DNA of 63,248 nt, filler included, from Hausera hauseri (lineage: Eukaryota): assembly GCA_046269625.1 (NCBI GenBank). It is 12 parts of 12 records of this genome, joined end to end, with 100 filler letters (N's around TTAATTAATTAA, not from the genome) between each part and the next. Parts side by side here need not be neighbours in the genome. Positions count along the whole stretch, not along the records: positions 20,184 to 24,389 come from JBJURY010702105.1; 11 more parts are not named here. The stretch is one strand, 5' to 3'. Shown one piece after another: positions 2,322 to 42,847 of this stretch; the stretch's first letter is position 1, and each line of letters opens with the position of its first letter. Made by a program: the position numbers and the translations under genes. The notes beneath the pieces were generated by a model that saw only the letters and a list, made by a program, of their open reading frames with translations, did not search any database and had not been told where the DNA came from.

Positions 2322-2807
2322 CTAAATAAAATAAAATGAAAAAACACCATCTCTGATTAGATTGACACTATCAGCGGATGTTCTAATTGGATCGTCGGGT
2401 ACAATTAAATTCCGATTAAGTGCAAAGGAATTATTCGTACCGAGTGGAGGGCGAAGAAGTTCGGTGATAACTTCCATCAAAGTCCCATCACCACCGGCGA
2501 CTACTAAACAATCTTGATCGTTCACTCTCAAAACGGACATCAAATTTTTTCCTTTTTCTTTACTAACCGTCTCGACAAGCGTCACCAAATATCCATTAAA
2601 ATTGAGCAACGGGAAGAGGTTCTTACTGTAGGATTTGCTGCTGCCTCGATCATTCGCCACGGGATTCAGAATGACTGTTAGCTTTTTCAATTTATCTGTC
2701 GGTCTCAATAGTTCATTGCCGTATTTCCTTGCTTTCTGACAAACGGATTCAAGTATGGCACTTAGTAGTATCGATTTCTTAGGAAGAGTTCTAACAGCAG
2801 AAATCAT
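2322..2807 (-). pseudogene. AGK: Acylglycerol kinase-like N-terminal fragment with in-frame deletions
   Basis: CQKARKYGNELL, KKLTVILNP, VVAGGDGTLMEV and PLGTNNS match the DAGK catalytic motifs of AGK. Segments after the N-terminal TM and before PLG are missing, and the C-half is absent. Confidence 0.8.
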
Positions 2808-2877
2808 CGTGACTAAATTAAAATTTTCAGTAAAATTATCAAATTTTGCATTTATCTTCTTTCGAAACGGGAAATCT

Positions 2878-2970
2878 GGGCCTGCCTATGTGCCCGACTC
2901 GCCGGCAGTGGAAAACCCGGCCATGCCCAACCGAATAGGCCAGAGGATGCCGGCCGCTGTAGGCACCACA
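2878..2970 (-). other. Conserved GC-rich structured motif, copy 1
   Basis: Hand alignment of the reverse complement to 36442-36533 gives about 71/93 identical positions; no similarity seen in the flanks. Confidence 0.85.
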
Positions 2971-6394: not shown

Positions 6395-6770
6395 ACAAAT
6401 TCCAATTCGGATAGAAATCGAGGAAATTACAAAAGTTATAACTATCAAAATCATTACGATGATAATCGAAACAATGATAGTCGACGAAATATAGGTAGTA
6501 CATAAGGTTCGACGAATCTGTACAATAGAAGCCTAAATAAGAATAAGTCCCTGTACATGAAGACGGTAGACAGAGTGTAGACAGAAATGGAAATTTAGTT
6601 TGTTTTACTTGCAGAAAGGAAGGACACATCGCAAGGTTATGTCCAAATCCGCGTAGTGTCTCATTCGGCGAGTCTAATAAGACTAGTATGATTAAGGCCA
6701 ACAGGAACTTAGAAGCAAAATATGGTGGTCATGGTGATACAGGTACTATTATCGACATACAAGACTTGTG
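6395..6770 (+). pseudogene. Gag C-terminus with CCHC zinc knuckle
   Basis: CFTCRKEGHIARLC (Cx2Cx4Hx4C) at 6601-6642, preceded by an N/R/Y-rich low-complexity tract. Confidence 0.85.
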
Positions 6771-6999
6771 AAAATTTCTAAATGCTCAGCCTAAATCTGC
6801 AAATCCGCAAATTTTGATGATAGAGAAGAACATGGATATAAACTAAGACTATTAGAAGTGTATCATGGTTTAGCAGAGCCAAAAACTGAATATGAGTATG
6901 CGATAGCATCCAAGCGAATTGATATGACACGAAAAAAGAGTATTCATACGAGTAATAAAACTGCCGATACAGCAGGAACTTCGGAAGAAGTCGACTTAG

Positions 7000-9900
7000 A
7001 TGCATAGCCTGAGTTTATCGTTGAAAAAGTAGACAAAACTACTGAAGACGATATAGTTGAAAAAGAATTTATTGAGCCATTAATACTTAAAATTGCAAAA
7101 AATAGAGGTCGCAGCCCCTCATTGAAAACGAAGCGAAGAAGTCGTTCACATTCACAAGTAACTAGAGAGAAAATAGAAGAAACAAAAATACGAAAATCGC
7201 TGTAGAGAGCGACGTAGAGCCTAGATTAAATACGCCAGAAATTGGTCCATTCACATCTATAGAGCTAAAAGAATCTGCAGAGTCAATTAATGAAATTAAC
7301 GAGATTTGCCCATTCCCACAAATGAGGAAGAAATGGGAAATATTGATGATTTTTATTCAAGAAATTTAAAAGTCCGACGTTCGTGGAAAAATGCCGATAA
7401 ATTAAAGAAAATGAGAATTAGATGCCACGATCCAGAAATATTACAGCGAAATTTAGAAAGACTTAAGCAGATTAGTGAACAGGTAGATATATCCGGTAAG
7501 AAGCAACAATTTGCTGAGAGGTTATATAAAAGTTTAAAATTATGTAGTGAAGGAAAGCTCGATGAAGCAATCGACTTATGAAAACCTGAAGAGGTGCCAC
7601 CTGAAACGTTAATAAAATGGAAACGTGAATTAAAATCATGGATTAAAAGTGGAGTCGAATTATCGGAAGGATGGAGCAAAACTAAGATAGTGTCGATGTA
7701 AAAGTCTATAGCTCAGACGCTATTCTTCACCTTGGAAGCAAATCCATGACTAAAGAGAGTAGACCGTAATATAGAGCATATGATGGATGAGATTCTCTGT
7801 GCAATGATTAATCGGCTTAGAGAAAAACCGGTTAACCATCGAAGTGGCGTTGATTTAGAAATATTGAGTATAGACCCAGTAAATATTTCTCCCCTAATGG
7901 AAGTGATAAAAATCGCCTTCACGGTACCCAAACGGTATACAAACCTAGAGAATCGTATCAAAATGGAAAATGAAAGGTGGACACAAATTTGTAGTTTCAG
8001 AAACCGAATTATGTTCCTAAATAACAAAGAAACCAAATACGTAATAAAGGCTTGTATTGTAAAATTTGATGAATATAAGGACGAGTTCAGTTATGTTGGC
8101 CGGATTATGAATTTCATAAAAAGTCCAGATGATGAATTAAAGGATGCGTACAAGATGCTAGACAAGGTTATATTAGCAAAGCCGATAATAACTAACTAAC
8201 TGCGGGAATGGTCCGAATTAGTAGCAAGACTAAGTAAACTAGTGGAAGACCATAAGAAAGAATTTCCAGAGAGCGAACCTTCTATCAAGAAACAATTAGA
8301 AAAAAGTGCACGTAACTTGGATACAATACAAGCGGAAATAGATGTTCGGACTCAATTCGAAGCATTACGACAATTAAACTTTATGAAGAAGAAGCAAGAA
8401 GTGGCGATATTAAAAGTGATATATAAAATGATCGAAGAAACAAACTTTACAGAAAAGCGGAATATGACTTACGAGTTTCACCCAGGATTAATAAATGTCA
8501 AAGTAGAAGGAATCCAACATCTAACAGCTAAATCTATCGATGAAATTTCCATCTAGGATATCGAAACCTTAGATATTTGTCCAGAACATAAAACGACTAT
8601 AGAGAAAGTAATGAGATTCATACATAAGCCACAAGAATGTATAGCTGGAACAGGTCAAAATTGCCATACCGAGCTGACAAAAATAAGAAACCACCACCAT
8701 CTTCGTAAAGAAATTGTTCGATACAATAGATCCCGACTCAAAATTCATTAATGAGATGCACGAGTTAGCCCTTGTCTTAGTAGAAATGGCAGCGATTAGT
8801 GATGAGAAGATGAGACAATTGATGCCTAAAATAAGAGAGGTTGAAGAAACATGCATTAGAACTAAACAAAGAGCAACAAGGTTAGACGAATTAATAAAAG
8901 AGCTCGAAGTCTATCAGAAGAAATATGCTTTTACCGAGTCAAAAATCAAAAATAAGCGTGAATTTGTACAAAGATGGCAAAGAGGTATAACTATCGAACT
9001 AACTGATTATCATCAAAAGGGATTCGTCCATTCTAATGAACTAGGCAAACTACTGAAAATGATTCATTATGTCTGTGGAATCGGAATAGGGTTCTGGACT
9101 AGGCAGATAAAAGAAATACAACTGGTATTGAAAGAAATTAGAGAAAGCGAGCACAGAGCGAATACAACGTTGACAAACTATGGACTTCTATATGTTGGAA
9201 ACGAACCGGAATGGGATGCGTACTTAGATGCATTAACGGCCGAAAATCCTGTGACTCCAGTACAGCTAAACAAAATAGAAACGTGTCCGTAGAACAGAAG
9301 AATCGATGTGGAGATGCTCCTGGATTCAGCGCTAACTGAAAAAGATTTAACGGAACTAATTAACATAAACATTACTGAAAGTAAGTTAGGACAACGTATT
9401 CCGATTTAAACTAAACTATGCAGTGAGAACACAGTTTATAGTGCGGTGCCGAAACTTTTGATAAAGAAATACGCTAAAATCTTGAGGGCTAAACCTCAAG
9501 TAACGATGAAGGTAAGGATATCATCCCAGGGGATGGACGAAAACGAATGTGAGTTTACTACGTATTCCTATGTAAAGGACGTAAGAGAATGGCTAATAAA
9601 TAATGGTGGAACAAACGAGCTAAACTATAGATTCTATTTTAGAGGTAGAATACTAGACTATTTTGAACAGATAATAGACGTCGGAATCATTTCCGACGAA
9701 ACGAATTGAATAGTGGTGATAGTATCCAATGAACGGACTAAAGAAGAAGCCATGCGTAAGGCAAAAACAGAACAATGTGCATGATAAATCATGGGAGTCC
9801 GAGACGCTGCAATGTATTTTGAATATTTACAAACGGATGAAGACAAGGATCAATACGATAAAAATTTAGTTCTACTGAGTAAAAACTTAACCAATGTCCC

Positions 9901-10397
9901 AAGACAGAAACGCCCAGTCGGTAGGCCTAGGAAAATACGAGAAGTAACTGACTATAATGTAGAATTGATTAGAGAATTGAGACAGATGTCGATTCTTACC
10001 TTCAGCACAGACAATGAAGAATTAAGAGAATTAATGAAGAATTTAATACGTATTGTAAATTTTTCGAGCCTTCGAGGCGACACATTAGACAATAAAGTAT
10101 CAAAAAGTAATATAACCGATAAATCGCTAATCGAAAAGATCATGGTGGAAAACACCACTGAAGAATTAAGAAAAGTATCACTGTACTTAGCTATCAAAAT
10201 AAACCATAATCGAGAGAATGAAATTAATAGAGCTACAAGTTTAGCACGAAGAGCGGCGAGAAAGCTACCATGCGAAGTAAACTGCTCGAAATTATTCGAT
10301 AAGAAAGAAAACAAACGGTTCGGAAATGGCAATAGACTCGAAGATATGCTACGTAATTTGACAACGACAGATAATATTAACCGGAAAAACGAATCCA
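7000..10397 (+). pseudogene. Degenerate accessory polyprotein (helical region, ubiquitin-like domain, AT-hook), copy 1
   Basis: Fragments are collinear with the minus-strand ORFs of C5, e.g. RYTNLENRIK, YVKDVREWL.NNGGTNELNYRFYFRGRILD and PVGRPRK. Confidence 0.85.
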
Positions 10398-10497: not shown

Positions 10498-13400
10498 AGA
10501 CAACAGCACATAAAATCGTCGGCAATTAAATATTATTTATATATTATTACATCCCATTTACTGTTGTTCATACTGCTTCTATATATTTCTAAAAAAAAGG
10601 AGACCAAAAAGCACAGCCCTTGTTGAGCACAACATCACCGCCCCGTGACAAAGCAACGAATGTGGAGGTAAGAAAGTGGAAAATGTGGAGGAACATTGTA
10701 GTCTGTCTAAGCGGTCTTTGTATGAATAAGACATTGAATACCATCAATATATAGTTCCTTACTGTAGATACTAAATGTGACTGATTTGCGGTGTTTCGAT
10801 GACTTTATATCTGCTTGCTGAGGTAATTGATGTAAAACAATATGGAATGTTGTCGTGTAAGATGTTGTGTCGTACAAGGACGAAAAAGGAAGGGAAGAAG
10901 GAGATGTAAAGGAAAAGGAAATGAAGATTGTTTGACTAGTAAAAATGGAGGTAGGAGCTGGTTTTGAAGTAGGATAGGAATTAGGCGTAGAGAGAGAGGA
11001 AGAAAGAGCAATAGATGAAGGAGCAGATATGGAGGTCGGAAGGGAAAAAGGTGTAGGGGGTGTAGAAACGGAGATAGGAATAGGCAAAGGAGTCAAAAAT
11101 GGTGTAGATGATTCAATTTTGGAATATCACGTACGAAAAAGGCAGGCTTGACGTTGTTTATATGCACCGCTAGTTCCTTACCGTCTTTAGAAATAATGAC
11201 ATTGTGGGAGTGCAATTTAACAAGTTTGTAGGGCCCCAAATGCCGTGGTTGAAAACCGCACGCATCTAGTTTCTCAATCAGACAAACTTTGCAGAATATA
11301 AATCATCAGGAGGGTACATTTTATTGTTATGTAGTATTCTGAAGAATGAATCTTTATTGACTGCGGCAAAGTGGTCCTGTGCTGCTCGGATCATTTCGTC
11401 TGTGGGTGTATCTTCCAAGACAGTTAGCCCAAATAATGAAAGTAAGGGGCTCTGAATAGGGCTTCGGTAGGTGAACATCCTGTAGAAGTGGATGGAGTGT
11501 TTCGCCAACCTAGCAGAACTAACGGAAGTAGGGCTGTCGAACTGTTATTGGATTCAACGAGGATTCTTAACCACGTTTTCGGTGTTCTGTGGAATCTTTC
11601 TAAAAGACCATTCGATTGGGGATGATACGGTGTTATGCGTATATGGCTGATTCCTAATCGATTAACGAGTGATTTAAACAGGTTGGATTCGAACTGAGGA
11701 CCTTGGTTTGTAATAATAAATCTAGGGGATCCAAACCTGCTGATCTATGTGCGGATGAAAACGTCGGCTATTGTTTCCGTGTTAGTGCTCTGCAGAGGGA
11801 CAGCTTCTGGCCATCGCGAGGAACGATCCATCATTGTCAAAATAAATTAATGACCGTTGTCAGGCTGGAGAGGGCTAACAAGATCTCTATGTACGGACTC
11901 CAAACGCGATGATATAGTGGTAGCCTCAAATGCCTGATGGTTTTAAATTTTTGGCAGGCCACATATTCCTTCACCCACGCTTGCACATCAGAACGCATAG
12001 ACGTCTAAATTACCTGTCGGTGAAGCAAGCGAAAAATGGCTTTAGCACAAAGATTATGTAGTGAATGTACGCTGTTGAATGCCTGTTTTTGCAAGGCCGG
12101 AGCTAAGATTATTTTAGCCTGTCCTGGTTTGGATGTGTCCAAAGCCACACCGTCAATGATATTGCAGGACGTAAAAGATTTAAGGATGTCTTGGGGTGGT
12201 TGGTTTTCCTGAAGCTGGTTTGGAGTAAAAATAGGCTTAAACTTAGTTGAGCTTACGGACCTAGATAAAAAGTCGGCGACCAAGTTGTTAGCGCTGTTGA
12301 TATGTTTTATTTCGAAATTAAATGTCGGCAAATATGAAATTTATCGTTCCTGTCGCGTAGAAGGATGTTTCATTACTATGATGTTTATTAGGTGTTTATG
12401 GTCGGTTTGTATGGTGAAACGCCGAGCAGTGAGCAAATGTTAAAAATGTTTTAAGGCAAAAACTATAGCTAGTAGTTCTCGGCCGAACGTGGAGTATCTG
12501 TTTTTAGAAGATGTTAGTTTGCGTGAAAAGAACTCCAGCGGTTGATTTTCGCCTAAAGCGGTAGTAGAGGCGTCTGTAGTAAGAATAAGCTCAGCGTCTG
12601 GCTTAGGGTATGCTAATATTTCGACAGTTTTTAGGCCTTCTCTTAACTTATGAAACTTATCTAGGAGTTCCGGCATACACTGTATTTTTTGATGCTTTAT
12701 TCCGCTACTTAGGTAAGCAAAGGGTGCGGTTAGATAGGAGCAGTATGGAACATATTTGTGGACAAAATGTAATGTGTCTAGGAAACTCCGAATTTCATTT
12801 GATGTTCGCGGTAATTGCACGTTTTTGAGGACTTCGACACGGTTAGGCTGAGGCGAATGTCCTTAGAGAGAGATAACGTGTCCGAGGAAATTTATGCGTC
12901 GTTTAAAGAAATGATATTTTGTAAAGTTTACTTGGAGGTTGTATTAGTGTAAACGGTGAAAGATGGATCGTAGATGTTCCTCATGCTCTTTGATGGATGA
13001 AGAAGCAACTAGAATGTCGTCAATGTAAGGATGAGCATAAGGAAGATAAAAAAATGGCATCTATGTGATGCGGAAAAGTTTGTGTTATTCCGTAGGCCAA
13101 AAGACACGTATAAGTATTTGTAAAGGCCGAAGGGTGTAGTAACGGTGGTTTTTTTGATATCTTCTGGTGCCACAGAGATTTAGTGATAAGCCCTTACCCA
13201 GTCAATAATGGAATAGATTGTGGTGGAATTGAGACGATGTGATGTCTTTTATCAATGTTAATGTGTACGTGTCCATTATATTCAAAGAGTTTAGTTGCCA
13301 ATAGTCACCACATGATCGCCACAATCCGTACTTTTTTGCATAACTTGTAAAGGAGAAGACCATGGTGACTTTGATCGACATACAATGCCGGAGTGTTCAA

Positions 13401-14672
13401 GATCTGGGAATTTGGCTTCAACCGCTTGTCTGCGTCAAGGTGATAATGGACGTACCTTTTGACGAATGAGCCTTTGGTGTTACGTAATGATGTGATGTAA
13501 AGTGCTATTTTTTGGTGTGAAAGACCTATCTTTCTGAATGACTCGAGCGCACGACATATTAAGGTACTGTTGCAGATTTTTCGACAATTGTAAAAGATCG
13601 GGTGAAAGCGAAATGGTTTTGTCATTAATAGTTGAAATTTGAAAGTTACTCAGTGGTTTAATATCTAAAAGTATTTGAGGTAGACTGGTTGTGTTGAAAA
13701 TTGTATCTGAGGTATTGCTTTTATCCTATGGTTTTACCGTAGTGGCAAAATCACACTTGTCGATATTCAATCTTGCTTCAGTTCCAAATCATATTTTAAT
13801 AATTTGTGAAATAATCGGTTTATTAGCTGGCATTTTCAGAATTGACTTCCTTGCGACACTAGTCCGTGCGACAAGTGAGACGCTATTTATCTGTTTGGTT
13901 TGATATTTAATGAAGGCACTTTTCAGATAACGTTGTTTACAATCCACTAAAAGATTGTAATGCGACAGAAAATCAGATCCAAGAATGACTGTCTAGACAT
14001 TTGCGACGGTAAATGTCCAATGAAACTCTGAGGAGAAATTTGGCAGGGTGAAGGAAAGTTTCGAAGTTCCGGAAACATGCAGTGGTTGTCCTGAAGCTGT
14101 AGAAAGAAATTTTATTTTAGATGTAACGTTTTGAACAGGAAAAGCAGCGGTAAAAGTGATATCGCAATGCCTGTGTCGATAAGGAAATTTATATATTGAG
14201 CTGTCGGTGCCATGGTAGAAGCTTTTAATGTGAACACTGCGAAAGAAAATTTTCGGCTATTAGAAAGTGAGAAGTGGCTGTCGCCAGTGCTTGCTGAGAG
14301 CTCTGACAGCGAAGTTAGTTTTTCTGAAAGAGGGGAACCAGGACGGCTGTTGGAAGCGGAGGTTGTCTATGCGATACTTCTGGATATAAAATTTGCATCC
14401 TATGTCAAATTTTTGTGTTTTGTTATCAAACTTACCGTGATAATAGCAAATCAATGAACGCCCAGTTGAAGGTGAACGACCATGAGATACAGAACGATAA
14501 CGACCAGAGATAAAACTCCTTCGCTGCGTCAGCGTAATTTCATCTAATTTGTTATTAATATTATTAATTGTCGCATTTTCAGCCCGTAGTTGATTTAATT
14601 GTTGTTCGAATGCTGTATTATTGTTGCTAACAGCTGCAGAAATGATGTGTTGTGCGTGTAAGTTCAAAACGT
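10498..14672 (-). mobile_element. Decayed Ty3/gypsy element (gag end, PR, RT, RNase H, IN, partial 3' LTR)
   Basis: CYYHGKF knuckle, FLIDTG protease (~14180), YIDDILVAS (~13020), TTDAS..RELLAI RNase H, N.VADFLSR and the integrase YHPQSNGL.ERFHR motif. A purine tract GGGGCGGTGA precedes TGTTG at ~10634. Confidence 0.92.
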
Positions 14673-14772: not shown

Positions 14773-15290
14773 AACATTGCACATAACTTCGTCGAATACT
14801 CGAGGATAATTTTGTTCAAGTAATTTCCCACAACTTTCCAAAATTATACTGATGGAATTTATATTATCGACATTGGAGTTGTCCTTCAGTAGAACTTGTA
14901 GACAATGGAGGACGATTCTGCCATTGAGACAATTTTGAAGATACAATTTCGATATGAATCTCATGTTACCAAAATATGTGTCTTTTACTTGAGATATTTT
15001 CTCTTCTACACTTTCTTTGTATAGATTCTTCATTCGTTCGTCATTGTCCATCATTTGCACGAGATTTTGTTCAAAGAATAATTTGCATTTATTCAAAATC
15101 AGTGCCCGAAATGTTACCGTTTCACATTTCAAATCGAAAATTCGACTGCAGAATCTCGAATAGACTTTAGCGTATCCCGGTTCTTTGATGGCCTTATTGA
15201 ATATTTTATCACAGAGAAGTCCGACACTAGTTTCATCGGTAAAACTGCAACTTCTCAATTTTTTCAAACATGACTCGAAATTCTCTGGTT
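14773..15290 (-). pseudogene. eIF4G-type MIF4G domain fragment
   Basis: PENF..L, IFNKAIKEPGYAKVYSRFC, FRALILNKC, GNMRFISKLY and ILESCGKLLE. Confidence 0.85.
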
Positions 15291-15790
15291 CCGATTGCAA
15301 ATGTTGACAGTTTTTCTCTAAATTAGCTTTAATTTCTACCAACTCTTCTAATTCGACTTTTTTATCGTTAATCTTTTTGATTGCTTCCAAACAAGCTTCG
15401 ATGATACCAGAATCAAGAATATCACTTCCTGGTTTAAGACCTTGCCATTTATCTTTAAACTTTTCAATCTCTTGCTGAAACTGGTCTTTTTGTTAAAAGA
15501 CTGTCTCTCATCATCAATTGAAAATTTTCCATCATTAATTCAAACTTTGTCCATTTTTTATTGAATTTGAGCAACTGTATCAATGCCACCACCCGCTTTA
15601 TCTATTTGGGAACTTAGCCTAGTTCGATCTCTGTTAAATACTCCATATTTCTGGGTGTAGACGTACGCATAGAACTTTGATTGCATTTGTTAAATTTGCA
15701 TCAAAATTATCCACAGTTCCTTTGATATTTTTCCACAGTGAATTAAGAAGTGCGTCGGAATTGTTTTGAATTAAAGTATCAGCGGACATT
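15280..15790 (-). pseudogene. DYNC2H1: Cytoplasmic dynein-2 heavy chain tail fragment
   Basis: Across frameshifts it reads AGGGIDTV, KW.KFELMMENFQLMM and QEIEKFKDKWQGLKPG, matching the recalled DYNC2H1 tail AGGGLET..KWDKFELMMESHQLM..ELEKFKARWDQLKPG. Confidence 0.8.
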
Positions 15791-17173: not shown

Positions 17174-18277
17174 TCATGGTTTGAGATATCTGAAAGGATT
17201 TCTGTGCTGGGTGATGAAAGTATTGAGTGGTAATAATTGCATAGCGGGGCTATCAGCATCCGTCGGCACACGAGAGAATGACAAGGTAAGATCTGATGGT
17301 GGATTCTCGAAGAAAGAAAAGTGCTCCCAACTGCATTGTGGAATTGAAGATATGGGTGTATGCGGTAGTGTAGTTGCCAAGTTAGACAGGGCTTGTGGAC
17401 GCCAAGGAGGTAAAAGCCAGTTAAACAGGCGTCTTTCCTTATAAATATCGTGGACAATGAATATCATGTATTCAGCGTCCATTTTACCTGGTATAAAATA
17501 TTCGATCAATTTGTATATGATAGGAAAGGGTTTAAAGCCATTTTGGCTATAGTTGAGGTCAATATATCCCAGTAATAGCTTGGGTGAAAGGTGCCAAAGG
17601 TTCAGGAAATAGAGTGGATCGAAAGTAATCAATATTCTGCCATATATGGCACGTTGAACATGAGCTCTACAGAGAGCGAAATCTGGTGCGTGATCCAGGT
17701 CATCTAGAGATATACTATGACAATGTTTATCCACATTATCGATCTTTTCTCTAGGGCAAACAAATGTCTTGTATTTTACATCAAGTGGTCCATCAGGATC
17801 GGCATTAAGATCACCCAAGTAGATGTGAATTAATACAGGGAGACTGCCAGAGAATACCACGGCATAGCCGACAAAAATAATATCCTGGATAGGGTAGGAA
17901 TAAGGTGTCCGAATATAGGAATGTGGGGAAGGACTTGGGGGTTGGGGAAGCCAGTCGAGTTCATTTAGGGACATTTTTCCATTAATTGATGTATACAGAT
18001 AACGGCGCCAAGCTGGAATATCTAAATATTCTAGTTCTACATACGTAACCGAATTTTCTCTCATTAGAATAGTAAAGGTATGTGAACTCCAGACATCTGC
18101 TGTCAAAAAAATAGATTTAAACGAAGATAAGTATACTTTAAATACGGGCAAGGGTGATCTGTGGATCTCTAATACAATAGATCCTTTAATAACAGACAAG
18201 AGCATATCTTTTGGTTGCGACGGGAAGTTCTGAATGGAAAATTGTTGGTCTAAGATTTGTCTCATGGGGTATGGCAC
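17174..18277 (-). CDS. 367-aa orphan ORF with possible EEP (endonuclease/exonuclease/phosphatase) motifs
   Basis: YLGDLNA...TF...KIDNV...LDHAP appear in the order of the EEP motifs GDxN, T, IDY and SDHxP, but with compressed spacing. Confidence 0.4.
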   Translation of the reverse strand: MPYPMRQILDQQFSIQNFPSQPKDMLLSVIKGSIVLEIHRSPLPVFKVYLSSFKSIFLTADVWSSHTFTILMRENSVTYVELEYLDIPAWRRYLYTSINGKMSLNELDWLPQPPSPSPHSYIRTPYSYPIQDIIFVGYAVVFSGSLPVLIHIYLGDLNADPDGPLDVKYKTFVCPREKIDNVDKHCHSISLDDLDHAPDFALCRAHVQRAIYGRILITFDPLYFLNLWHLSPKLLLGYIDLNYSQNGFKPFPIIYKLIEYFIPGKMDAEYMIFIVHDIYKERRLFNWLLPPWRPQALSNLATTLPHTPISSIPQCSWEHFSFFENPPSDLTLSFSRVPTDADSPAMQLLPLNTFITQHRNPFRYLKP

Positions 18278-18286
18278 ATAATTGTG

Positions 18287-19990
18287 TTACCAATAAGAAA
18301 TTAATATGCAGCGGTCTTGCAGGCTATTACTTTTGAATTTATTTGGGATTGTAAACACAGAGGGATATTTAAGTGTAGTGTTACGAAGTGATGTATCGAA
18401 ACGTATGGACCGATACGTGGATCTAGAACGTAAGACCTCAAAAAGGAAAGGAATAAATGATCCTTTAGGCAAAGAAATGGGTAAACGTTGCATTTGTTGA
18501 ATATTGGCAAATTGAATACTTTGCCCGATATTACGGATTAGTGGGGCAAGCGTTAAAAAATAGGAAGTGTTGGGATAAGACGTAGAAGCGAGGGGTAAAA
18601 GAAGTAAGGGATAATGGATTGTATCCATAGTTTGCTCGACGGATGCTTCATCACTTTCAACACGGATAATGGACTGCACATAGGTTGCTTGCTAGGAAGG
18701 TATTGATGTCATACGAGGATATCTATCTTCACGGATGCAATAAGTTACTGGAATCACCTTGATACTCGATCGAACTAAAAAAATAAAGTGGGTGTTAGAC
18801 CATTGTGCATAGGCCTGAAAATAATAGGCCGTGGCCAACTTTAATTGTCATAAAATAGTTGTATAACCACTATCGGTTTGTCTATCGACAATCTCGCCGG
18901 GCACGAAATAATTCAAATTAAAGTTAACATCATATTGTGGTACATTTTCATATTCGTTTAAGTACTCTGTATAGAATGTCTCGTTGGATCTCTTAAGATA
19001 CACGGCAAGTGAAAAGCATATTATGATTACTATACCTGAAATGATGATTACTACCACCCATATGTAAAAGAGAGCGATTGAAGTTTTTCTTAGGTCTACA
19101 AGCGTACTAGTTGTTGAAGCAGGCATACGTGAGAAGAAATAGAAAGCAAACTTTTGTTTCCAATTTGAAAAATTTGGAAAGAATGGCATGGGCTTTTCCA
19201 CAAGTTTAGTAGTTATAAAATGCGTTACATTACCTCCATGGGTAGATAAATTTAATGAGAATTGATTAAATACTGATTTAATGGTTGTAGTCGGGCGATT
19301 TAGTTTTGTAGGTATGTGTCGTGAGTTTAACGTGCCAACTTTTGGTTTTATCCAGGGTGATGACCTAGATGAAAATAAATGCTTCAAGTTTAAGGTAGTA
19401 TTAATTATGACACGATGCGAGGGATCTATCAAAACAGCAAACTGGATCCTACACACAGAGGATCAAAAATGAATATCTTCTTTCTTTAATATTATAAGTC
19501 GAGGCGATGAAGGTCCAACAGACACCAACCAATGTTTCCCTATATATATGGCTTCCAACACTGGAAGGTTCCACCGTGTTCGTAAAACATCAATAAAAGA
19601 ATAAGGGATTGCTTTCCACAAAAATGACCCTGATGTATATAAAGATTGAACAGGGGGAATTAACCAATCGTGTATGAAATATACATTCGTCTCAGATATC
19701 GGGATAGTGATTCTGATCCATGTTGGCTTGTTATAGTATATAGGAAAACGTGGTAAATCGAGGGACAATTTTGGAGTAACTGTCCTTCTAGAAAAATTTA
19801 ATCTAATTCCTTCGATTTGTACCAAAACTCCAGATTGTCCCTCAGTCCATAAATACTGATAAGCTAAGAATGGTTCTCTGAAGATCCGAAACGATGGTGT
19901 TTGTAAAGGTGGTGTTTCCCACCTATCAACTACTGTCGTTGAGTCTTGATCAAGAAACGCGAAGGTTTGCTGCACTGTAGGTTTGTCCAC
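18287..19990 (-). pseudogene. Degenerate orphan ORF series including a type I membrane segment
   Basis: Three co-oriented ORFs, with TM IALFYIWVVVIIISGIVIIICFSLAVYL followed by a Tyr-rich tail. Confidence 0.45.
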
Positions 19991-20191
19991 GGGGTAAAAC
20001 CATGCGCCACCAGGCGATTCAATTGTACAAAGGCCAAGAAATTCTATTGACCGGTTATTCCAGATATGAAATATTAAAATTTTNNNNNNNNNNNNNNNNN
20101 NNNNNNNNNNNNNNNNNNNNNNNNNNNTTAATTAATTAANNNNNNNNNNNNNNNNNNNNNNNNNNNNNNNNNNNNNNNNNNNNATACCTTT

Positions 20192-21646
20192 TTATGAGGT
20201 GACTTGAAATTTATCGTCTGTAATTCCTTTTGCTAGATTCGTTCCTGTCAGCTTGTTGGGAACGGCAGTAATACCTCCATTAGGTAAACTAGCCCAATCT
20301 GTTTCACTGCGTCTAAACATCGGCTGTCCTAAGGTTGCTTCACAATTCTTAAGAATGGTTGGTTGTGTCGCGTTATCCAACAACACTCTCGTCAATGGTG
20401 TAGCTAATCTTGGAGTATTTTGATAAATAACAGGAAGTTCCTGGATACAACGTTTTTCTTCTACATTGATGGGAACTTCTCTCTTTTCACATTTATAGGT
20501 TAATAACACTTCGTCCGTAACTCGACCAAAGATTCCTTCTCTCATGGGAATTATTGGAGAAGCCAATTCTGGGTTCGCATATATAAGAGCCATTTTAGTT
20601 CTCATGATTTCTGTGTCCAATTTGCAGTCGTTCATTATCATTTTATGTTATAATTCCGTTATTCCGACTTGTCCTTTATAGTAGAAGTAATCGTCTCTAT
20701 TTTTTAGGTAGTCCTCAATCCGAACATCCTGCGTTTTCAATTTGTAAGTTTTTGCGTTTATTTCTGTTTCGGCTACGACAAACGCTTCATAGTTTGTGGC
20801 AAACATTACTACGTCGCAACGAGTCATCATCTCTTTTTTTATAAATTTTAGTCCATGCGGATCTGAGATTAATACAGTAGGTGTACGGTGTTCTGATACA
20901 TCTTCGCGTGTCCTTGAGTTAATTTCTGATTTATCCACATATCGTTTTCCGGTAGTTTCATTAAACTTTAGCTCCTCAATTTTGATGAAATTACAGCTTA
21001 TTCCAGGAGGAGGTTCCCATATTATAACCGAACTTCTAAAAGCACATGTTCCTTCTTGTAAATGGCATTTTTGATTCTCAGTGTATAACTTAGTGACGCT
21101 ATGAAACATTACCTTCTGTGATCGCATTTCTGACTCGTAGAAATCCACAACTACTACGTTCGGTTCCAATCCTTTTCCGGTATCGTATTCTGCTCCATTA
21201 CAATGTCCGGTGTGCATGTCCAGTCTTCCAGCCACTATTTTGTATGCTCTGATTATTTTTCCTGGTTGCATTTCTAATTGCATACTGCCCCATTGTGCCC
21301 TTCCGTTCTCTTTGGTTTGTTTGCAGTGCTGACGTTGTAGGTTCATTGGAATTAGCGGGGTAGTTGGCTTAATTATGGAGAAATATCCGTGTATCAGGCT
21401 GCAGTGGAAAATACTGCGGGATCGTCTCAACATGCACTCCATTCCGTTTAATGATATCAATTCTTGTTGTTGATACAGGAAATAACTTTTCTCTCTTGTT
21501 TCTAGTTTGTGCGGTCTAGCATCCTCGCATGTTTCCAAATCCATTAAAGAATATCTTTGGCCTAGTTTAAACTTATCGCAATTGTAGACGGTTACCATGC
21601 TTATGTACTTTATTAGCATCATTAAGATGAGCAAGCTAACTAGCCA
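20192..21646 (-). pseudogene. Chuvirus-like class III fusion glycoprotein ectodomain (env)
   Basis: Internal signal peptide, then VYNC..YSLMDLETC, C.LRRSRSIFHC, GHCNGAEY, CHLQEGTC..IIW and, after one stop, EVLLTYKCEKREV..CIQELPV..PLTRVL. This Cys/motif pattern matches recalled chuviral glycoproteins. Confidence 0.8.
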
Positions 21647-24389
21647 ATTTGATTCGTTTTTCCGACCTCCAACGTCTGTCGTTGTCAGGCTACGTAACAT
21701 ATCATCAAATTTATTGTTGTTTCGCTTATTTTCTTCTTTGTCAAATAGTTTTGCCCAATTTACTTCACAGGGCATTCTTCTTACTGCTTTTTGTGCTAAG
21801 CTTATTGCCCGATTGATTTGATTTTCGCGATTGGGATTTATTTTGATAGCTAAGTATAATAACACTTTTCTCAACTCCTAGATGGTGTTTTCTACCATGA
21901 TCTTTTCTATTACTGACTCATCGGTTAAGTTACTTTTTGATAGTTTGAAACGTGAACTTTTCATCATTTTGGCTGCATTAAATATTATCTTTTCTTTATC
22001 ATCTAACACATCTCCCCGAAAACTAGAATAATTCACAATTCGTATTAAATTTTTCATCAGCTCAGTTAATTCGTCATTCTCCGTGCTAAGAGTTGGAATC
22101 GATATTTGTCTCAATTCTCTAATTAACTCTCCACTGTAATCTATTTATTCTCGCAATTTTCTAGGTCTACCTACTGGACATTTCAGTCTCGGACCCTTAG
22201 TGATTGATTCACTTAGTGGTACTAAATTTATGTCGTATTGTTCCTTATCTTTGTCCGTTTGTAGATACTCAAAATACAGGGCAGCGTCTCGGACTCCCAT
22301 GATTTGTCCTACGCATTGTTCTGTTTTAGCTTTACGTGTGGCTTCTTCTTTTGTCTGTTCAATAGCTATTACTGCCACTATCCGATTTTTTTCGTCGGGA
22401 ATAATCCCGACGTCTATCAATTGTTCCAAGTCATCTAATATTCTACCTCTAAAATAAAATCTGTAATTTAACTCATTTGTCCCGCCATTGTTTACTAGCC
22501 ATTCTCTTACGTCCTTTACGTAGGAATCTGTAGTCAATTCGCATTCTTTTTCGTCCATCCATTCGGATGACACTATTACTTTTATCGTCACCACAGGTTT
22601 AGCCCTCAAGAATTTAGCGTACTTTCTTATCAAAAGTTTTAGCACCGTACTATATATCGTGTTTTCGCTAGATAATTTAGTTAGAGTTGGAATAAGTTGT
22701 CATAGTTTATTTTCGGTCATATTTACGTTAATTAACTCAATCAAATCCTTTTCAATTAGTGCTGAATCCAGTAGCATCTCCACATTGAACCTCCTGTCCC
22801 GCGGACATGTTTCTATTTCATTTAGTTGTACTGGCGTCGTAGCTTTCCCGGAAAGTATCTCATCGAAGTATGCATCTCATTCGGGTTTGTTTCCGACATC
22901 TAGAAGTCGGTAGTCTACTAACGTCGTATTAGCTCTTTGGATGCTTTCCCGAATTTCCCTTAATCTAGGTTGTTTTTGTTTCATTTGCGTAGTTCGGAAA
23001 CCTACTCCATTCCCACAGGCATACTGGATCATTTTCAGTAATTCACCGAATACGTTTGAGTCGATGAGTCCCTTTTGGTGATAATCTGTCAATTCGAGAA
23101 TCACATCCTTTTGCTATCTTTGTACAAATTCTCGTTTATTCTTAATCTCTGATTCGGTAAGACCATATTTATTCCGATAGACTTCAAGCTCTTTTGTTAT
23201 TTCATCTAACTCTGTTTCTCTTTGTTTCGTTTTGATACATGTTTCTTCTACTTTCTGTATTTTGGGCATCAACTGCCTCATCTGATCATCACTGATTTCT
23301 GCCATTTCCAATAATAGATAGGCTAGCTCATACAACTCATAACCTTTGAATCAGGGTCCATTGCATCCTGAAAGCTAAAATGTGGGTCGTTTCCGATTTC
23401 TATCAACTTGCTATGGATGTTCTGGTCTGATCCGGCCATCCATTCTTGAGGTTCGTGTAGAAACCTTATTGCATCTGTTAACATATTTTGATATCCGGGA
23501 CAAATATCCAAGATTTTAATATCTTGTACCGAAATTTCGTCGATTGGTTTTCCTGTAGAGTATTGGACTCCTTCTAGTCGGACAATCCTTAACTTTAATT
23601 TTACATCATAAATCATATCCCGTTTCTCCGTAAAGCTCGTTTTTTCGATCAATTTGTAGATTTCCTCCATCGTTGATGCTTCTCGTTCCTGTTCCATAAA
23701 TTTTAGTTGTCGTAGCGCTTCAAATCGAGTACGGATGTCTATTTCTATTTGCAACGTGGCTAAATTGTGCGCACTTTCCTCTAATTGCTTCTTCACTGTT
23801 GGATCGCTTTGCGGAAATTCTGTTTTGCGATCTTCTACCAATCTGGTTAGTCGCATTACTAGTACGGACCATTCCGATAATTGATTTGCGATTACCGGTT
23901 TCGCCATTATGGCTTTATCTAGCATCTTGTAGGCATCTTCTAACTCATCATTCTGTCCTTTTAGGAAATTCGTAACTCGTCCGACATAACTAAACTCGTC
24001 CTTGTACTCGTCTAACTTTAAGATACAAGCTTTTATTACATATTGAGTATCCTCGTGGCTTGGAAACATAATACGGTTCCTCAACCCATAAATATATGCT
24101 CGTATTTCATTTTCTAATTTAATACGATTCTCTAAATTCGTATACCGTCTAGATACGGCAAACGTGAGTTTAATCATCTCCATCAAGGGAGGAATATCTA
24201 CTAGGTCTATACCAAATATTTCTAAATCGACATTACTTCGATCAACAACCGGTTTTTCTCTAAGTCTGTAAATCATTGCTAGGCGAATTTCATCCATCGT
24301 ACACTCTAGACTGCGAGTTGCTTTCTTTAATTTCGGGTTTACTTCTAGAGTGGATAGTAATGTCTGAGATTTAGTGACTTTTACGTCAA
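21647..24389 (-). pseudogene. Degenerate accessory polyprotein (helical region, ubiquitin-like domain, AT-hook), copy 2
   Basis: Homologous to C2. UBL at ~22370-22595, GRPRK at ~22160; the last segment runs in frame into the glycoprotein. Confidence 0.85.
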
Positions 24390-24489: not shown

Positions 24490-27400
24490 ACAAACACTTT
24501 ACATCTGACAACCGTCAATGACGTATCGAAAGAAGCCGTCTATAATGGGATTAACGTTGGGTGTATCAACTGGTACTAGCCAAGTATGGGTTCAGACTAG
24601 CCATCAAACAGGCCTGAGATGGACATGGGCTCAAAACAACAACTGGCTAATGTTGGCTGGAACGGGGTCCTATATATATATCGGGGTGGAATAGACATAT
24701 CATCCAACTTATGAATAAAGTTAAATCGCAACTATTTAATTATAATTGACATATTGGCTAACAAATAGACAATTATAATATATAAAGTGAAATATAAAGT
24801 CCTACCCCCTCATGGTGCTACACAGACTCCCTGACTTGCGAAGACCGAACTATACCTCACGATAGTTGTCTTGCAAGTGAGGATAAGTACCTCAAAAACC
24901 CCTAACAACATTAATTTTTCCAAATGGCCCAAGCTGATTGGTGTTTAAAAAGGGTAAGTGACGTTGTATGACAACTAATTGATTAAAAACTAAATCTGCA
25001 AAAACTAAGAAACAAACAACCTTCTCCACATTTCCCCCTTTCTCAAGACGAAAAACCCACTGGCTTTTTCGCAACAATCATAAACATGGATGGAAACATC
25101 ACCATTGAGCAGTTCCTATTTTTCAATTGACTAACTAGGTACAAAAGAAGTGTACAACCCCACTTAAGTGTATATAAAACACAATTATATCCCATGGTAT
25201 AGAATGTCTTAACTAAAATGACAAATGAGATAGGAAAAAAAAAATTTCGACAATAGCTATCATGGTGCACAAAATAAAACACCATGAAATGAAATTATTT
25301 ACAATGTAACAAATCATAAAATTTATTATGCTATCCAAATGTACTTGAACAAGATAACCAATGTAAGTATGAAAAAAAAAAAAAACACAACCCACAAAAG
25401 TGTAATTAAACTACAAATGCAGGAACAGTAGTTTACATCATGTACTCATATGAAGAAAAAAAACAACCCCAAACACAAAGAGTGTTAAAATTTCATACTC
25501 AGCATAGCACTATATGCAAACCTTAATTTAAACACAATGATAGGTATTTAACACATGTAATATGTGTACAGTAACCAAAAATTACAAATTTTCATTGCAC
25601 CAACACTGATTTGTGTATGCAAAATGGCACAACATGACATAATACAATGAATACCTCTGCATATCAAGTGCAATTAATATTATAAAAAAACAAGTCAAAT
25701 AGGTACAAAATTACTGATAACTCAATGAATGAGCAAAGTATAAAAAAAAACGAAAGCAAAATCAGGTAAGTTGAACTAACACGTCATGTGTTCAAATCCA
25801 TATCTCTATGGTATATAGAGAACAATGTATGTACAGGTTCTTAAAACAAATACTGTCCCTTCCCAAAGACATCAGGATCATTCAATATTTTACCAACAGT
25901 GATAAAGACAAAGAGGAAAATATTAAATATAAATGTCAGAGTACAATGTACCATGACAAAACACACATGAAAATTAGAACTATCCTTTTATTGTGAACAA
26001 ATGAAACAATAATATACTACAAAAGAAGATCTCTCTTGTGAAGACACTGAATCAAGTAGGTCGCTTCTGGGAAGATGTGAAGCAACAGAACACATCAGAA
26101 TGACATCTGATCAGACACAGGATATCCTCTAGAATAGTGCAGAACCCAACAGATGAGCTGTTCAATGCTCCAGATATCCTCAGACAGTCAAAGAATGACA
26201 TGAATCTGCTGCCATTATGTTCAAGAAATGAATCTCAAACAACTGAGGAGAGAATCTGACCAACACAGAAAACAGATGTATTAGAACAAAGAAAATTAAG
26301 ACCACTGGGACAAAGCAAGTCAGCACTCCGTGAAGTGTTAACACCGCACTCCAAAAAAAATTAAATTGCTGATTAAGCCTGCTTCACCCAGTAGGTTCAT
26401 GAATTTCACATAAAATGTTGAATTAAGAAAACTATTTAATTTAAATTATGACTTAAAAAGTTTAAACTTTCCCCCTAGAAAATAATTCAACATAACAGTT
26501 AACTTCAAATTGTAAATAATTCGAAACTATTCAAATCCATATAAATTCCAAGTTGAAATCTCAGTATTTCAAAAGGAAACTTAACCCTTGGTGTATGACA
26601 ATATTTTGTACAAAAATGGGTTCTCAACAACCACTTTTTAACCCATAAGTGGTTATAATAAATTTAGTACTTAGTTAAATGCTCAACTATTAGACGCCTT
26701 AATGAATACATAACCCAGTATTCAAATTATCCAATATTACCTGATCAATAAAAAACACAGTCAACCAGAAAATATTTACTCTTCTTGTGGTATAAACAGT
26801 AATGAGTGCGCTATCTCACACTGTGCTTTACCACAAAAAGATCACACTCCAATACCTTTAAAGTATCCGATCATAAGATAAAACAATCACTAAACTAACC
26901 CAGAGGTTATAAAACTCAACCCTTGTCATTATAATCAACCAATCAGTAAATAAACAATAAATCACTGTTAAGTAAAACCTATCATTGATCAAGTAGTAAC
27001 CCAGATATTCCAAATTGATAGTACTAAACAAAAAAAACTATATCTACCCATTAAACTGAGTCATTAACTCACAACTGACAAAAAGTATTATTGTCAACTT
27101 ATTGAGTGCAAAAAAAAAAAATACTAAGCCATCATTGTCACATACATTCATGTCAGCAATGTTCACAACTCTCGTACTTTCTTGCCAACACTCAGCAAGA
27201 AACAGATACAATGAACATATGAATATAAGCTACTACTTATATTTCACAAAAACAACATGACTGGAAAAACACAAACACCAGTTGAGACTCAACATAGAAC
27301 AAAAACATAAATTTTCTCCATCTGATTCTTACACAGTCACTACTATCTTTCTTTCTCACATTCATAGCATTTTCCCATACTAACATCATTCTACCCAGAC

Positions 27401-29451
27401 TTTCCAACAAGAGTCAACAACTGTTGTAGGGGAATGGGAACAAATCCAGTATGTTAATCAATTGAATCGATTATTATCATCCAACAATCCCAAACACATT
27501 CGGGGATACATAGTATGGTTCCCTCATACAAACACAAATGGTACCGGTATTCCTGGATCCACCAATAATGTTGACATTAACCAACATTAACCAATCCTAC
27601 CAATGTAAGATGGATTTCAAAAACGTGGCTCCACGAGCACACATACAGTTTCCTCTGAAACTATCCACAATTGCTAGCACTACAAGACACCTATGGGATA
27701 AACCCAATAACTGACGTCACTCACAAAAATCATGCCATGGCCAATGGTCACACAGACCCCTGAATCATATACGCTATATGATCCAAACGTGCCTCACAAA
27801 AAAAACATTTAATTAATCACATGCCTGGTAAACCCCTGGTAAAAAAAATGACCAACCAATTGTAGACTGCTGTACTGGCTACAGAGTTACAAAAGGCAAA
27901 TGTCAAATACACACCCAAAATTACCACTTAGGGACTGTTACAGAATCAGGAAAACCTAGCGCTTCGAGTTCCCAACAATACCCAATGGGGAAGCTGTACT
28001 TCAATCACACAGACAATGCAGTGCGGTGTCAAGACACTACAAAGAGTACTTAGCTTTTTGTGGTTAGAGTCCAAGAGATCCATTTATGGAGCAGCTGTGA
28101 TGTAGGGAGGTCATCACCCAGATCCATCAGGGAAGATAATGAACTGCTGACCGCAGGCAAAAGGCACCGAAAACTTAAACAGCAGCCACACATGCAGGGG
28201 GGGATACAACAGGAGATCAACCAGGATCATCCCAAGAGCCAGATGTACATGTTATGAAAAAAAAATATGAGTTAACCACAAAATTCATAACATAAATGTA
28301 ATGTTATCAATATAAATGTATAATACTCTAAGTCCCACACCGTCATCTGAGGTGAAAAAAAAAAAAACCCAATAGACAGACTTCACAAAGTGACAAACTG
28401 TCAAAGACCAAAACCACCCAAAACTTAAATGTATAGATCCCAAAGAATGATCAGCAAGTAACTCAAGAAGGTTATTCGATAACACAAATGTCCTGAAAAG
28501 TAAAGAGGACAAGCTACCCAAGACATAGTCAGGAATACTAAATAGCACAGAAGTCCAAATTACAAGACCAGACAAGATACCCAAGACAAAGTCAAGGAAT
28601 ATTCAAATAAATAGAAGCTCAAGAAACAAGAAAGGATGAGAGCCCAAGATGAAATCAAGAGGTACGAGCACAAAGACCTAGGGCACAAAACTTGACAAGC
28701 CTACCAAGACGAAGTCAAGGAGGGTCACCTAATGAAAAAGACCAGAGGACAAAACCGGACGAGCCTACCAAGACGAAGTCCGGAGCTACTTAATAGCTAA
28801 TAAGTCCAAGGAACAAAACGGACGAGCAACCCAAGATGTCAGAACCCTCAATGCGATCTGGTTCAAATCCGAATAGGCAGAAGAGCCATCTCGTTAAGTC
28901 TAGGGTATATTTTCCAGATTTAATAAAGCACTGAGGAGAACTGCATACTATAATGATGAATATAATGTGTGTACACTTGTTTAATAAATTAAACCTCAAA
29001 ATGTAGAAAACACACAAAATATGAAGGAACAACAGAATACATATTAAATTTTACAAATTTAATATATAATTAATAAACCTGGCCAAAACACGGGCCAAGG
29101 ATGATCATGGAAGAAATGAAGTTTTAAATAAGCGTTTTAATAATAAAACAAAATTGAATGAATACTATTACTAAATGAGCATATAAGAAAAAAACAGACT
29201 ATAATCTTCTTAAAAAGAAGTAAAGTATGCTTAAATTGTGTAAATATATTAACTATCACACAATCACAAAAACAATGATATAATAAACTTGCCGGATGTT
29301 TGTAAGTTTACTGCAGAGAATGACGGGACCGTTGCCAACTGCCATTACAGTTCCAACAATAACGGTTTTCATTTACAAACACTTTACATCTGACAACCGT
29401 CAATGACGTATCGAAAGAAGCCGTCTATAATGGGATTAACGTTGGGTGTAT
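24490..29451. mobile_element. Circular or tandem 4,885-bp unit, possibly a collapsed LTR-like element
   Basis: 24490-24566 is identical to 29375-29451 (77 bp). A TATA run, AATAAA and TGTA...TACA ends lie around the junction. Confidence 0.6.
28505..28840 (+). repeat. Degenerate ~63-bp tandem repeat, 6 units
   Basis: CCAAGA core at about 28518, 28581, 28644, 28704, 28768 and 28831. Confidence 0.8.
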
Positions 29452-38169: not shown

Positions 38170-39524
38170 ATGTGTACATCTGATGATTCGGAATTTCACT
38201 TTCACGACAGTTATATTATTCATATTTTCAAATGAATGCGAAACAGCAGCTACAATGAATCGACATTATCCAGCAAGAAATTTGAAATATCACGAATCAG
38301 TGGGATTTGTGAGAAATTATTCGCCAGGGATTACGTTCTGCAATTAATCGGTAACAAAAATGGTTCCCTTTGTGCCTATTATCCACCGACAATTATCATC
38401 CGTATTAGAAAAGTGAGAAGGACACAGGGGTTCATGTGCAATTCATGTCACGGAACAGCATTTTTATGAAATTTATTTACAATTCTATCAATGCACGATG
38501 TAGTCAATTTCGGGTGCCCACATTGAGTTTTAAAAAGAATTTCCTCTGTCGACCAAGTACGTTAAGTGGAACATTTGAAATTTACGGACGGCAGTGTATC
38601 TCATCGTTGTTCGGTACGTCAAATGAATTCGGGATTCCGTCGACATCTGGAAAGGAAACATTCGATAAATTACGTGGGGATGATAAAAATTTATTGAAAA
38701 ATATTCAGATAAAATATATTTTCGATTTTATACTGGAAAATAAGAAAATGATGTTCGGATTACCAGTTAATTCATCTGAAAGGGTAGGTCGACACAATCG
38801 ATACAAAGATTTCGAAATCATCAGTTTACCGTATCCAGGATGTGAATTTTTCAACGATTGGCAATTGACAAATTACGACCTGACTGGGGCGATGTTTGAA
38901 TGGGATAAAGTGGAAATTAATTCTCGACTCAGTAGAAATTTGTCGGCGACTCAAGCAATGACGATAAATATCAATTGGGCACAGTATATGACTTGGGATT
39001 TGACAGAATTGACAACGAATTATCTGAAATTGATTTTGGGAATTATGATTGAAGATAACTGTGGTATCCTCATACACTATATATCTGGCTGGGACCGAAC
39101 TCCGTTATTTGTCAGAATCATCAGATGTATATTGTGGGCAGATGGGTTATTGCATCAGTCTCTGAATCCATCTGAAATACTCTATCTTACTCTTGCATAT
39201 GATTGGTTCTTATTTGGTCATCAAGTTAAACAGCGGCTTGAAGCTGTAGAAGAAATGTTGATATTTGCTGTTGCATACCTCCGTCACGCATCAACAGACC
39301 CGACAACATCAGTTCGCCATATATACGGTGATTTCATTGAAGCGTTCTGTTCTCACTTGACCCGATCAAGTAGTGATACCGCACTCAATACTAAAGACCC
39401 AAATTATATATTTCGGGAAATTTTTGGTTCAAGCCCATTTGAAAGCCTTTTTGAAATGTTAACCGATTGCGGTACTGATATGTGTCAAATTATCGATACG
39501 ACTCTAATAGAAACAATGAAGTGA
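38170..39524 (+). pseudogene. MTMR14: Myotubularin-related protein 14 (Jumpy/EDTP) copy, frameshifted, catalytic Cys to Tyr
   Basis: LFARDY..NGSLCAYYP, LPYPGCEFF, HYISGWDRTPLF (normally HCISGWDR) and LAYDWFLFGH. Confidence 0.92.
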
Positions 39525-41120: not shown

Positions 41121-42847
41121 GATTCTTGCGGTTTTTTAACCACTGTAGTGGTTTATGATCAGTGTAAATAACAATAGGTTTGGTTTCCGATAAATATTGG
41201 TCATCTAACGTATAAACTATTGCAAGTAATTCACGTTCGATTGTTGAATAGTTCTCTTCATGTTTTTTTAATTTTCTTCCTTCAAACAATATAGGATGTT
41301 CTTGTCCTTGATCATCCTTTTGTGATAAGACAACTCCGATTCCAATTTTACTTGCGTCCGTTGCTAAGAAATATGGTTTCGACATATCGGAGTACGCTAA
41401 TATAGGTGGGGCTAATATATTATCTTTCAATTGTTGATAAGCCTTTTGACATTCTTGAGTCAAAACAAGTTTAGAATTTTCCTGTAATAATGAATGTAAC
41501 GGTGAAGCTATCTATTGGTAATTTTTAACAAATTTTCGATAGTAGCTTGTGAGGCCAAGAAACTTCGGGACTCCCTTAAGCGTCTTTGGTACCGGAAAAT
41601 CTTGGATTTTATTTATTTTTCAAATCTGAGGACTAATGCCTTTTCGACTTGCCGTGTGACCCAAAAAGTCTACTTTTGTTGGAGCAAAACAGCATTTTTA
41701 TTCCAAGTAATGCACACCTCCCCAACATATCTTTAAGATGTTCTTTATGTTGCTTATAATCGATTGATGCAATTATTACATTGTCTGCCTAACACATTAT
41801 ATGTGGAGCATCCATCGTATTTATGTCCATGGCCGTTTGAAATGTTCCTGGGGCATTTTTCATTCCGAGTGCCATGCGGTTAAATTCATAATGTCCGTCA
41901 GCAATTACGAAAGCTGTCTTTTATTTATCCTCTTCTTGAACTTCTATTTGCCAGAATCCTTTTTGTAAATCTAACGTAGTGAATAACGTCTTATCCTTCA
42001 ATTTATCCAATATTTCGTCGATTCTGGGTAGCGGATAAGTGTTGTCTATAGTTATTTCGTTCAAGGCACGGTAATCCACACAAATTCTAATTGACCCATC
42101 TTTCTTTTGTACCATTACAATTTGAGCTAACCATGGCGAATTGCTTGGTCGGATTATATCATGTTGTTTCATCTCGGCTATTATTTCTTTTGCCTCTTCT
42201 CTTTTATCATAATTAAGCCTATACGGTCTCTTTTCGATGGGAGTCTCCATTCCTTGTTTTAATTTAATGCCATGTTTGATGACTGATATTATTCCCATAT
42301 CATATTCATCTATTGCGAATACATTTTCATATTGGTGTAATATTTTTATTATACCTTCCTTTTCTGCACCTGTCAATAGACTTTCTTTACCAAATAGATC
42401 ATAGTCATTCCAATTGATGGGAGTTTTAACAAATTTTGTTATTTTCTTATTTTTGTTGAGATGGCTTTTTAATTTATTTATTGGTTCATTTTCTAATCGT
42501 ATTCCGCTTTCTGTTCATGTTTTACGTCGCTGTTTTTCCCTGAATTCTGACAACTACTGTACAGTAGAAATAATAGCTTCCTTTGCATTATTGCCTATAT
42601 CTTTTACGATATATATAGGCAATTCGTGTGCCTTTTCTCAATAGTTTTGGTTTGTTTGAAGTATTGGCTATCCGAACAATTACTTGTTGTTCTCGAATAT
42701 TGTCTATCGTATGAGCAATCCATAATTCATCCTTATTTATAAAGTTTACATTTGGTTTGATGTATACATCTCCTTTATCTCGGCCTTCTACTAGAGCTTT
42801 GGGCACAATCTATGTTCTAGATGGTATTAACACATCTTCCTTAATGG
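41121..42847 (-). mobile_element. Ty3/gypsy pol remnant (RT, RNase H)
   Basis: IIRPSNSPW, RICVDYRALN, YPLPRID, LDLQKGFWQ, TDASKIGIG, ERELLAIV and TDHKPL. Confidence 0.95.

Follow-up and report, generated by a model that had tools for sequence, protein, structure and literature searches.

The env locus, its decay and its sister copy

The window analysed here, a stretch of 63,248 nucleotides from Hausera hauseri, consists of 12 separate contigs of 4-7 kb each, joined artificially through spacers of N44-TTAATTAATTAA-N44, so that adjacency across spacers is without meaning and the stretch is not one locus. The env gene under study lies on the minus strand of a 4.2-kb contig (piece 20184-24389), behind a long upstream coding region (Table 1). 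We read it from 23320 on the minus strand as a protein of 1045 residues with X at the stops, termed P0001. Seven in-frame stops interrupt this frame, at 23116, 22879, 22702, 22147, 21880, 20650 and 20194, the last two inside the env ectodomain, and a frame change is found near 23340, in the upstream coding part. Because of these seven stops and the frame change this copy is dead, and the protein cannot be made from it. Stop-codon reassignment was ruled out, since the stops mix TAA, TAG and TGA and differ between the two copies present in the window. The initial annotation had placed a glycoprotein at 20192-21874; the glycoprotein is indeed there, on the minus strand, but as two ORFs divided by the stop at 20650.

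Table 1. Features of the env contig and of the second copy, with the evidence for each.
Feature	Position	Strand	Basis
Class III (gB / chu-like) env ectodomain as predicted, up to contig end	20186..21595	-	Pfam, model, Foldseek, cysteines
Internal hydrophobic peptide, likely signal peptide	21590..21646	-	Hydrophobicity; same place in relatives
Helical domain at the Bcl-2-like position of relatives and Burro	21716..22108	-	Collinear in alignment
AT-hook-like GRPRK motif	22157..22174	-	Read in sequence
Ubiquitin/SUMO-fold domain	22352..22594	-	Model, VIA, Foldseek
Helical + ubiquitin-like unit, common to Gag-Env-Pol relatives	22370..22756	-	Relatives-only profile, blastp
Upstream charged helical coding region (P0002 and P0001 aa 1-188)	22757..24387	-	dN/dS 0.13
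Second, separate decayed copy of upstream region	7695..10397	+	72.5% nucleotide identity, 2756 columns
Gag-type CCHC zinc knuckle, second copy	6598..6648	+	Pfam zf-CCHC E 9.9e-5, over its cut-off

The contig end falls inside the env ectodomain, before the transmembrane anchor and any Pol. Neither Pfam searches nor tblastn with ten related polyproteins found protease, RT, RNase H or integrase on the env contig, and the sequence upstream of env is not Pol, Pol domains being absent over 2.7 kb. As the contig is without Pol domains, it is relatives and the second copy that support the designation of a retroelement polyprotein. The latter, on piece 6395-10397, stops just short of the signal-like peptide and carries the zinc knuckle about 1 kb upstream of the shared region, with apparent frame changes between them; the knuckle is thus located on the sister piece and not on the contig of env.

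Comparison of the two copies gave dN/dS values of 0.128 (327 codons) and 0.129 (527 codons), the aligned parts contained 13 stops of which none was common to both, and the frame changes occurred at different places. The low dN/dS, the unshared stops and the differing frame changes indicate that the upstream region was once genuine, uninterrupted coding sequence and that the two copies degenerated independently; judged by its substitution pattern, the family was formerly under purifying selection. The in-frame fusion to a retroelement polyprotein that had been proposed for this locus stands as regards the upstream coding sequence, whose link to env is in frame apart from unshared lesions, and it agrees with the second copy and with relatives in which Gag, Env and Pol occupy one ORF; the frame is not open in this copy, given the seven stops and the frame change, and any downstream link to Pol would lie beyond the contig. 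At 80% likeness, contigs matching the env piece numbered 13,146 in run X1 and 988 in run X2, most of them less than 95% alike, and those matching the sister piece, knuckle region included, 10,689 (X1) and 497 (X2). These counts, which measure depth and not copy number, point to an old, high-copy repeat family; the window itself may have come from X1.

The neighbouring pieces of the window contain fragments of eukaryotic genes as well as transposons. Decayed remnants of Ty3/gypsy RT, RNase H and integrase were seen at 1-732, 11445-13530 and 41122-42427, none of them linkable to the env element; identity to Pol of the env relatives is mostly 36-63% for the remnants at 1-732 and 41122-42427. The Polinton/Maverick-like piece at 52280-58106 encodes an rve integrase (56357-57478, its chromodomain weak), an A32-type ATPase (54664-55323) and further, unassigned ORFs, with tandem repeats at its left end. 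The first and last 77 bases of 24490-29451 are identical and no long ORF is present there; this piece is either a circle as assembled or a single 4.9-kb unit of a tandem repeat. On the minus strand, 17177-20083 holds four ORFs (134-370 aa) with stops between them; three were scanned, yielding a weak DUF6709 match only, on an ORF with a transmembrane-like stretch. Further ORFs encode a MIF4G domain (14773-15492, minus strand, E 2e-16, at a contig end with no start in view), a diacylglycerol-kinase catalytic domain (2325-2885, minus strand, uninterrupted, E 6e-13) and a weak myotubularin-related match (38409-39521, plus strand, uninterrupted, E 0.06).

Domains of the env glycoprotein and of the region preceding it

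Residues 560-996 of P0001 matched the Pfam family PF24664 (Monjiviricetes_fusion) with an E value of 7.7e-32, over model positions 5-430 of 653, and the structure predicted for the ectodomain as a monomer reached a mean pLDDT of 91. In Foldseek searches against the PDB the top matches of this model were all herpesvirus gB (best E 5.7e-12, TM-score 0.44-0.5), whereas against viral proteins they were chu-like and related glycoproteins (best E 3.5e-30, TM-score up to 0.74), the viral structural matches being 15-20% identical. In an alignment of 130 rows, all 14 ectodomain cysteines were kept in at least 97% of the rows aligned. By predicted fold, env is a gB-type class III fusogen, with a putative trimer and putative fusion activity; the proposal of a chuvirus-type class III fusogen was thereby borne out, including by the structural match to class III fusion proteins on which it had been made to depend. 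A sequence search of the PDB with P0001 returned no matches, the ESM Atlas search with env no usable match and a word-seeded homolog search with env none, and a scan of viral contigs gave 12 pattern matches of which none was confirmed. A transmembrane stretch is found about 540-550 aa into env in all five relatives checked, with Pol after it; env of the P0001 contig stops about 470 aa in, short of that anchor position.

Immediately before the ectodomain, WLVSLLILMMLIKYISMV (21646-21593, minus strand) is the most hydrophobic stretch of P0001 and is in frame with the upstream coding sequence, in agreement with the internal signal-like peptide, continuous with the upstream domain, that had first been noted. 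The 16 relatives examined all carry an 11-residue hydrophobic core 9-16 residues before the first env cysteine. Release of env by signal peptidase at this peptide is plausible, considering standard membrane topology, the cleavage itself being putative. No description of polyprotein processing through an internal signal peptide was found in the literature passages and searches covered.

Further upstream, residues 243-323 of P0001 are predicted to fold as ubiquitin/SUMO (pLDDT 70-86; VIA Z 12.9, rmsd 1.4 over 74 aa). A profile built from relatives only scored 28.1 bits (iE 5e-12) against the helical and ubiquitin-like unit, with none of 1000 shuffles scoring as high, and it detected the unit in both window copies; blastp of the unit against the relative P0158 gave an E value of 2.5e-7. 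The helical domain located between this unit and env is less distinct: 131 of 1000 and 26 of 200 shuffles scored equally well in the Bcl-2 profile tests, the model was of low confidence and the GGW motif was absent. In relatives a Bcl-2-like domain is weakly visible (P0007, Pfam E 1e-3, BCL-XL E 0.01), and the GGW motif is present in 4 of 17. Of 16 relatives, five carry a GRP[RK] motif. For the charged helical region at the upstream end one small homolog, P0032, was found, and P0002 had no match in Pfam, in the PDB or among homologs, word-seeded search included. An HSP70 identity for P0002, suggested by a lone ESM Atlas lead (0.77), was dropped, as Pfam and PDB gave it no backing.

Relatives of the env polyprotein and alternative origins

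A full HMMER search yielded 295 matches at E≤0.001, of which the 17 at E≤1e-30 were all domain-scanned. In these 17 best relatives a protease follows env in 11, five of the 17 also having RT-RNaseH; a Gag marker precedes env in four, three are env-only fragments, and RT or integrase before env was found in none. The env is 25-33% identical to its long best matches. P0158 (3003 aa) carries the helical and ubiquitin-like unit, env and a full Pol within one ORF. P0014, which aligns with P0001 aa 178-887, has the order knuckle, ubiquitin (E 0.03), AT-hook, Bcl-2 (E 0.06) and env, the middle three being weak; a word-seeded homolog search with its residues 380-800 retrieved only P0014 itself. The best match, P0004 (HBK71150.1), is a 2627-aa Gag-Env-Pol polyprotein filed as a protein of a Flavobacteriaceae MAG, a filing that is probably a binning contaminant. 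Several tandem aspartic-protease domains follow env in P0154, P0158, P0005 and P0009, in which a second membrane protein after the integrase was also noticed by eye; P0154 has seven aspartic-protease stretches and ankyrin repeats, as in Burro.

Phylogenetic analysis of env was performed with the 116 sequences that were long enough among 151 env-profile matches (455 columns), and with a second, IQ-TREE set of 39 sequences (16 in-group and 23 out-group, hand-picked across the first tree); both trees were midpoint-rooted and contained no named virus, chuvirus, Anakin or Burro sequence. P0001 fell in a clade of 17 with a support of 0.999 in the 116-sequence tree, and its nesting in the Gag-Env-Pol clade received 99.5/100 from IQ-TREE, on a long branch. 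A protease motif after env was present in 11 of the 16 other clade members vs none of the 99 sequences outside the clade, and in both trees the env of P0001 grouped apart from stand-alone glycoproteins. P0035 has a DUF5641 Pfam domain before env, the sole such match; we take this domain to be of a kind found in BEL/Pao elements.

These placements bear on whether the element acquired its env on its own, as the initial annotation had suggested, a retroelement of this lineage having captured a chuvirus glycoprotein in the manner of Anakin. In favor of such a capture, the best viral structural matches are chu-like glycoproteins and the branch of P0001 is long; yet P0001 lies inside the Gag-Env-Pol clade and its upstream accessory domains are common to clade members, the viral matches are 15-20% identical vs 25-33% for the long polyprotein matches, and P0035 is placed outside the clade. 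We therefore regard an independent capture as highly improbable. An endogenous chuvirus fragment (non-retroviral EVE) was rejected, since the upstream sequence is of retroelement type and env groups apart from stand-alone glycoproteins.

Two other readings retain the retroelement and differ in how env is made or in which lineage it belongs to. Env of the same element might be translated alone from the Met at 21700, through a spliced or subgenomic RNA, in which case the peptide would serve as a normal N-terminal signal and its frame continuity with the upstream sequence would be incidental. Both copies retain this Met, which precedes the hydrophobic core by 19 aa, and a Met stands within 22 aa of the core in 7 of 16 relatives, but in the other nine no Met is found within 46 aa, and the spacing varies; the nearest upstream Met is 5-220 aa away in the 16 relatives examined, so that their env is without a fixed start of its own. 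In relatives env moreover continues into Pol in one ORF, which would require polyprotein processing even if env had its own start, and we consider separate translation unlikely. We hold it similarly unlikely that the element is a non-autonomous Gag-Env derivative, or belongs to a GAG-ENV-POL errantivirus lineage other than Burro proper. Pol was not seen, an absence that is uninformative because the contig ends within env; the 4.2 and 4.0 kb of the two copies showed no MATH, BIR or ankyrin domain, and Pol does not unite the GAG-ENV-POL elements in one clade (PMC13524379, in excerpt), but a ubiquitin-like domain in front of env is characteristic of Burro (PMC6431247, in excerpt).

Proposed mode of action and comparison with known systems

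The explanation that we favor, with a probability of roughly 0.85, is that the locus holds a decayed env gene for a predicted gB-type class III fusogen, which likely came from an LTR retrotransposon of Burro-like Ty3/gypsy type whose Gag, accessory, Env and Pol parts formed one long frame. This layout has already been described in flatworms, so the locus is a new example and not a new gene capture; both the architecture and the env type are published, and the surprise is low. The element likely works like Burro. In active ancestors, Gag and the accessory domains would have been made in the cytosol, after which the internal peptide would start translocation into the ER and host signal peptidase would cut just before the VYNC motif, leaving the ectodomain free in the lumen. 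The transmembrane helix of env would act as a stop-transfer sequence, placing protease, RT and integrase back on the cytosolic side, and there the Pol enzymes would be trimmed by the protease of the element itself. A single mRNA could in this way supply capsid, fusogen and enzymes for enveloped particles moving from cell to cell.

Such a scheme offers a concrete topology by which one ORF of 3,000-5,000 aa could yield capsid, envelope and enzymes. With this locus the Burro-like Gag-Env-Pol retroelements gain a further family, divergent, decayed and high in copy number, and modelling suggests that the env proteins of this clade are class III fusogens of gB type, preceded by a conserved signal-like peptide within the polyprotein. 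A speculative extension, which we think doubtful, is that in Burro-like elements the env signal peptide, once cleaved, stays as a membrane tail anchor on the Gag-ubiquitin-like-Bcl-2-like precursor, so that capsid assembly, together with a domain that modulates apoptosis, is tied to the membrane at which the gB-type fusogen gathers; with the same reserve, the host of this family may lie outside the triclad planarians, which if true would widen the range of Burro.

Anakin comprises mosquito BEL/Pao elements with a chuvirus-like glycoprotein (PMC7642597, in excerpt) and shares with the present element the same glycoprotein family within an LTR retrotransposon. Unlike in Anakin, env here follows Gag-side accessory domains and not integrase, and Pol of the nearest relatives follows env; an Anakin identity was rejected on the lack of any Pol domain in the 2.7 kb upstream and of RT or integrase before env in the 17 relatives. 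The comparison with mosquito BEL/Pao elements made at first accordingly had to be given up, as env, judged by its relatives, is on the Gag side, before Pol, and nests among Gag-Env-Pol polyproteins of Ty3/gypsy type, whose layout is published (PMC6431247 and PMC13524379, in excerpt). A nematode belpaovirus has one Gag-Pol-Env ORF (PMC9094657, in excerpt), and Troyka was ruled out, being without env and having a different knuckle (PMC12440569, in excerpt). The glycoproteins of Jingchuvirales and related Monjiviricetes resemble env in Pfam family and predicted fold; unlike those of Jingchuvirales, env is embedded in a retroelement frame, is 15-20% identical in structural alignments and has no nucleoprotein or RdRp nearby.

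Ty3/gypsy errantiviruses of the GAG-ENV-POL type with a gB-type env have been reported from Platyhelminthes, Nematoda and Bryozoa (PMC13524379, in excerpt). The element shares with the Platyhelminthes_C1a group of that excerpt a gB-type env that, judged by relatives, probably lies between Gag and Pol, and six S. mediterranea envs from its supplement have, in a comparison by eye only, the same 8-cysteine pattern and domain I-II motifs as env here and its top matches; unlike the Platyhelminthes_C1a elements, the copy here is not intact. Burro, or GYPSM1, denotes giant Ty3/gypsy LTR retrotransposons of planarians (PMC6431247, in excerpt, citing Jurka 2007 and Grohme 2018) whose single ORF is ordered Gag-CCHC, Ubi2/SUMO, BCL2, env and PR-RT-RH-IN, and of which copies with stops and frameshifts are known (PMC6431247, in excerpt). 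Burro elements are further marked by long LTRs and by a size of more than 20 kb. The Burro env was likened there to gypsy Env, whereas env here models as gB-type class III, and the MATH, BIR and ankyrin domains of Burro are the ones not seen in the two copies. The Burro-like label rests on env and the Gag side; any Pol, LTRs and Gag capsid would lie beyond this contig. In common with Burro, the family has a Gag CCHC knuckle (in the sister copy), a long helical region, an Ubi2/SUMO-like domain and env, probably all in one frame, a helical domain at the BCL2 position in which the Bcl-2 motif is not recognisable here, an env related to mononegavirus-type glycoproteins, a high copy number and decayed copies.
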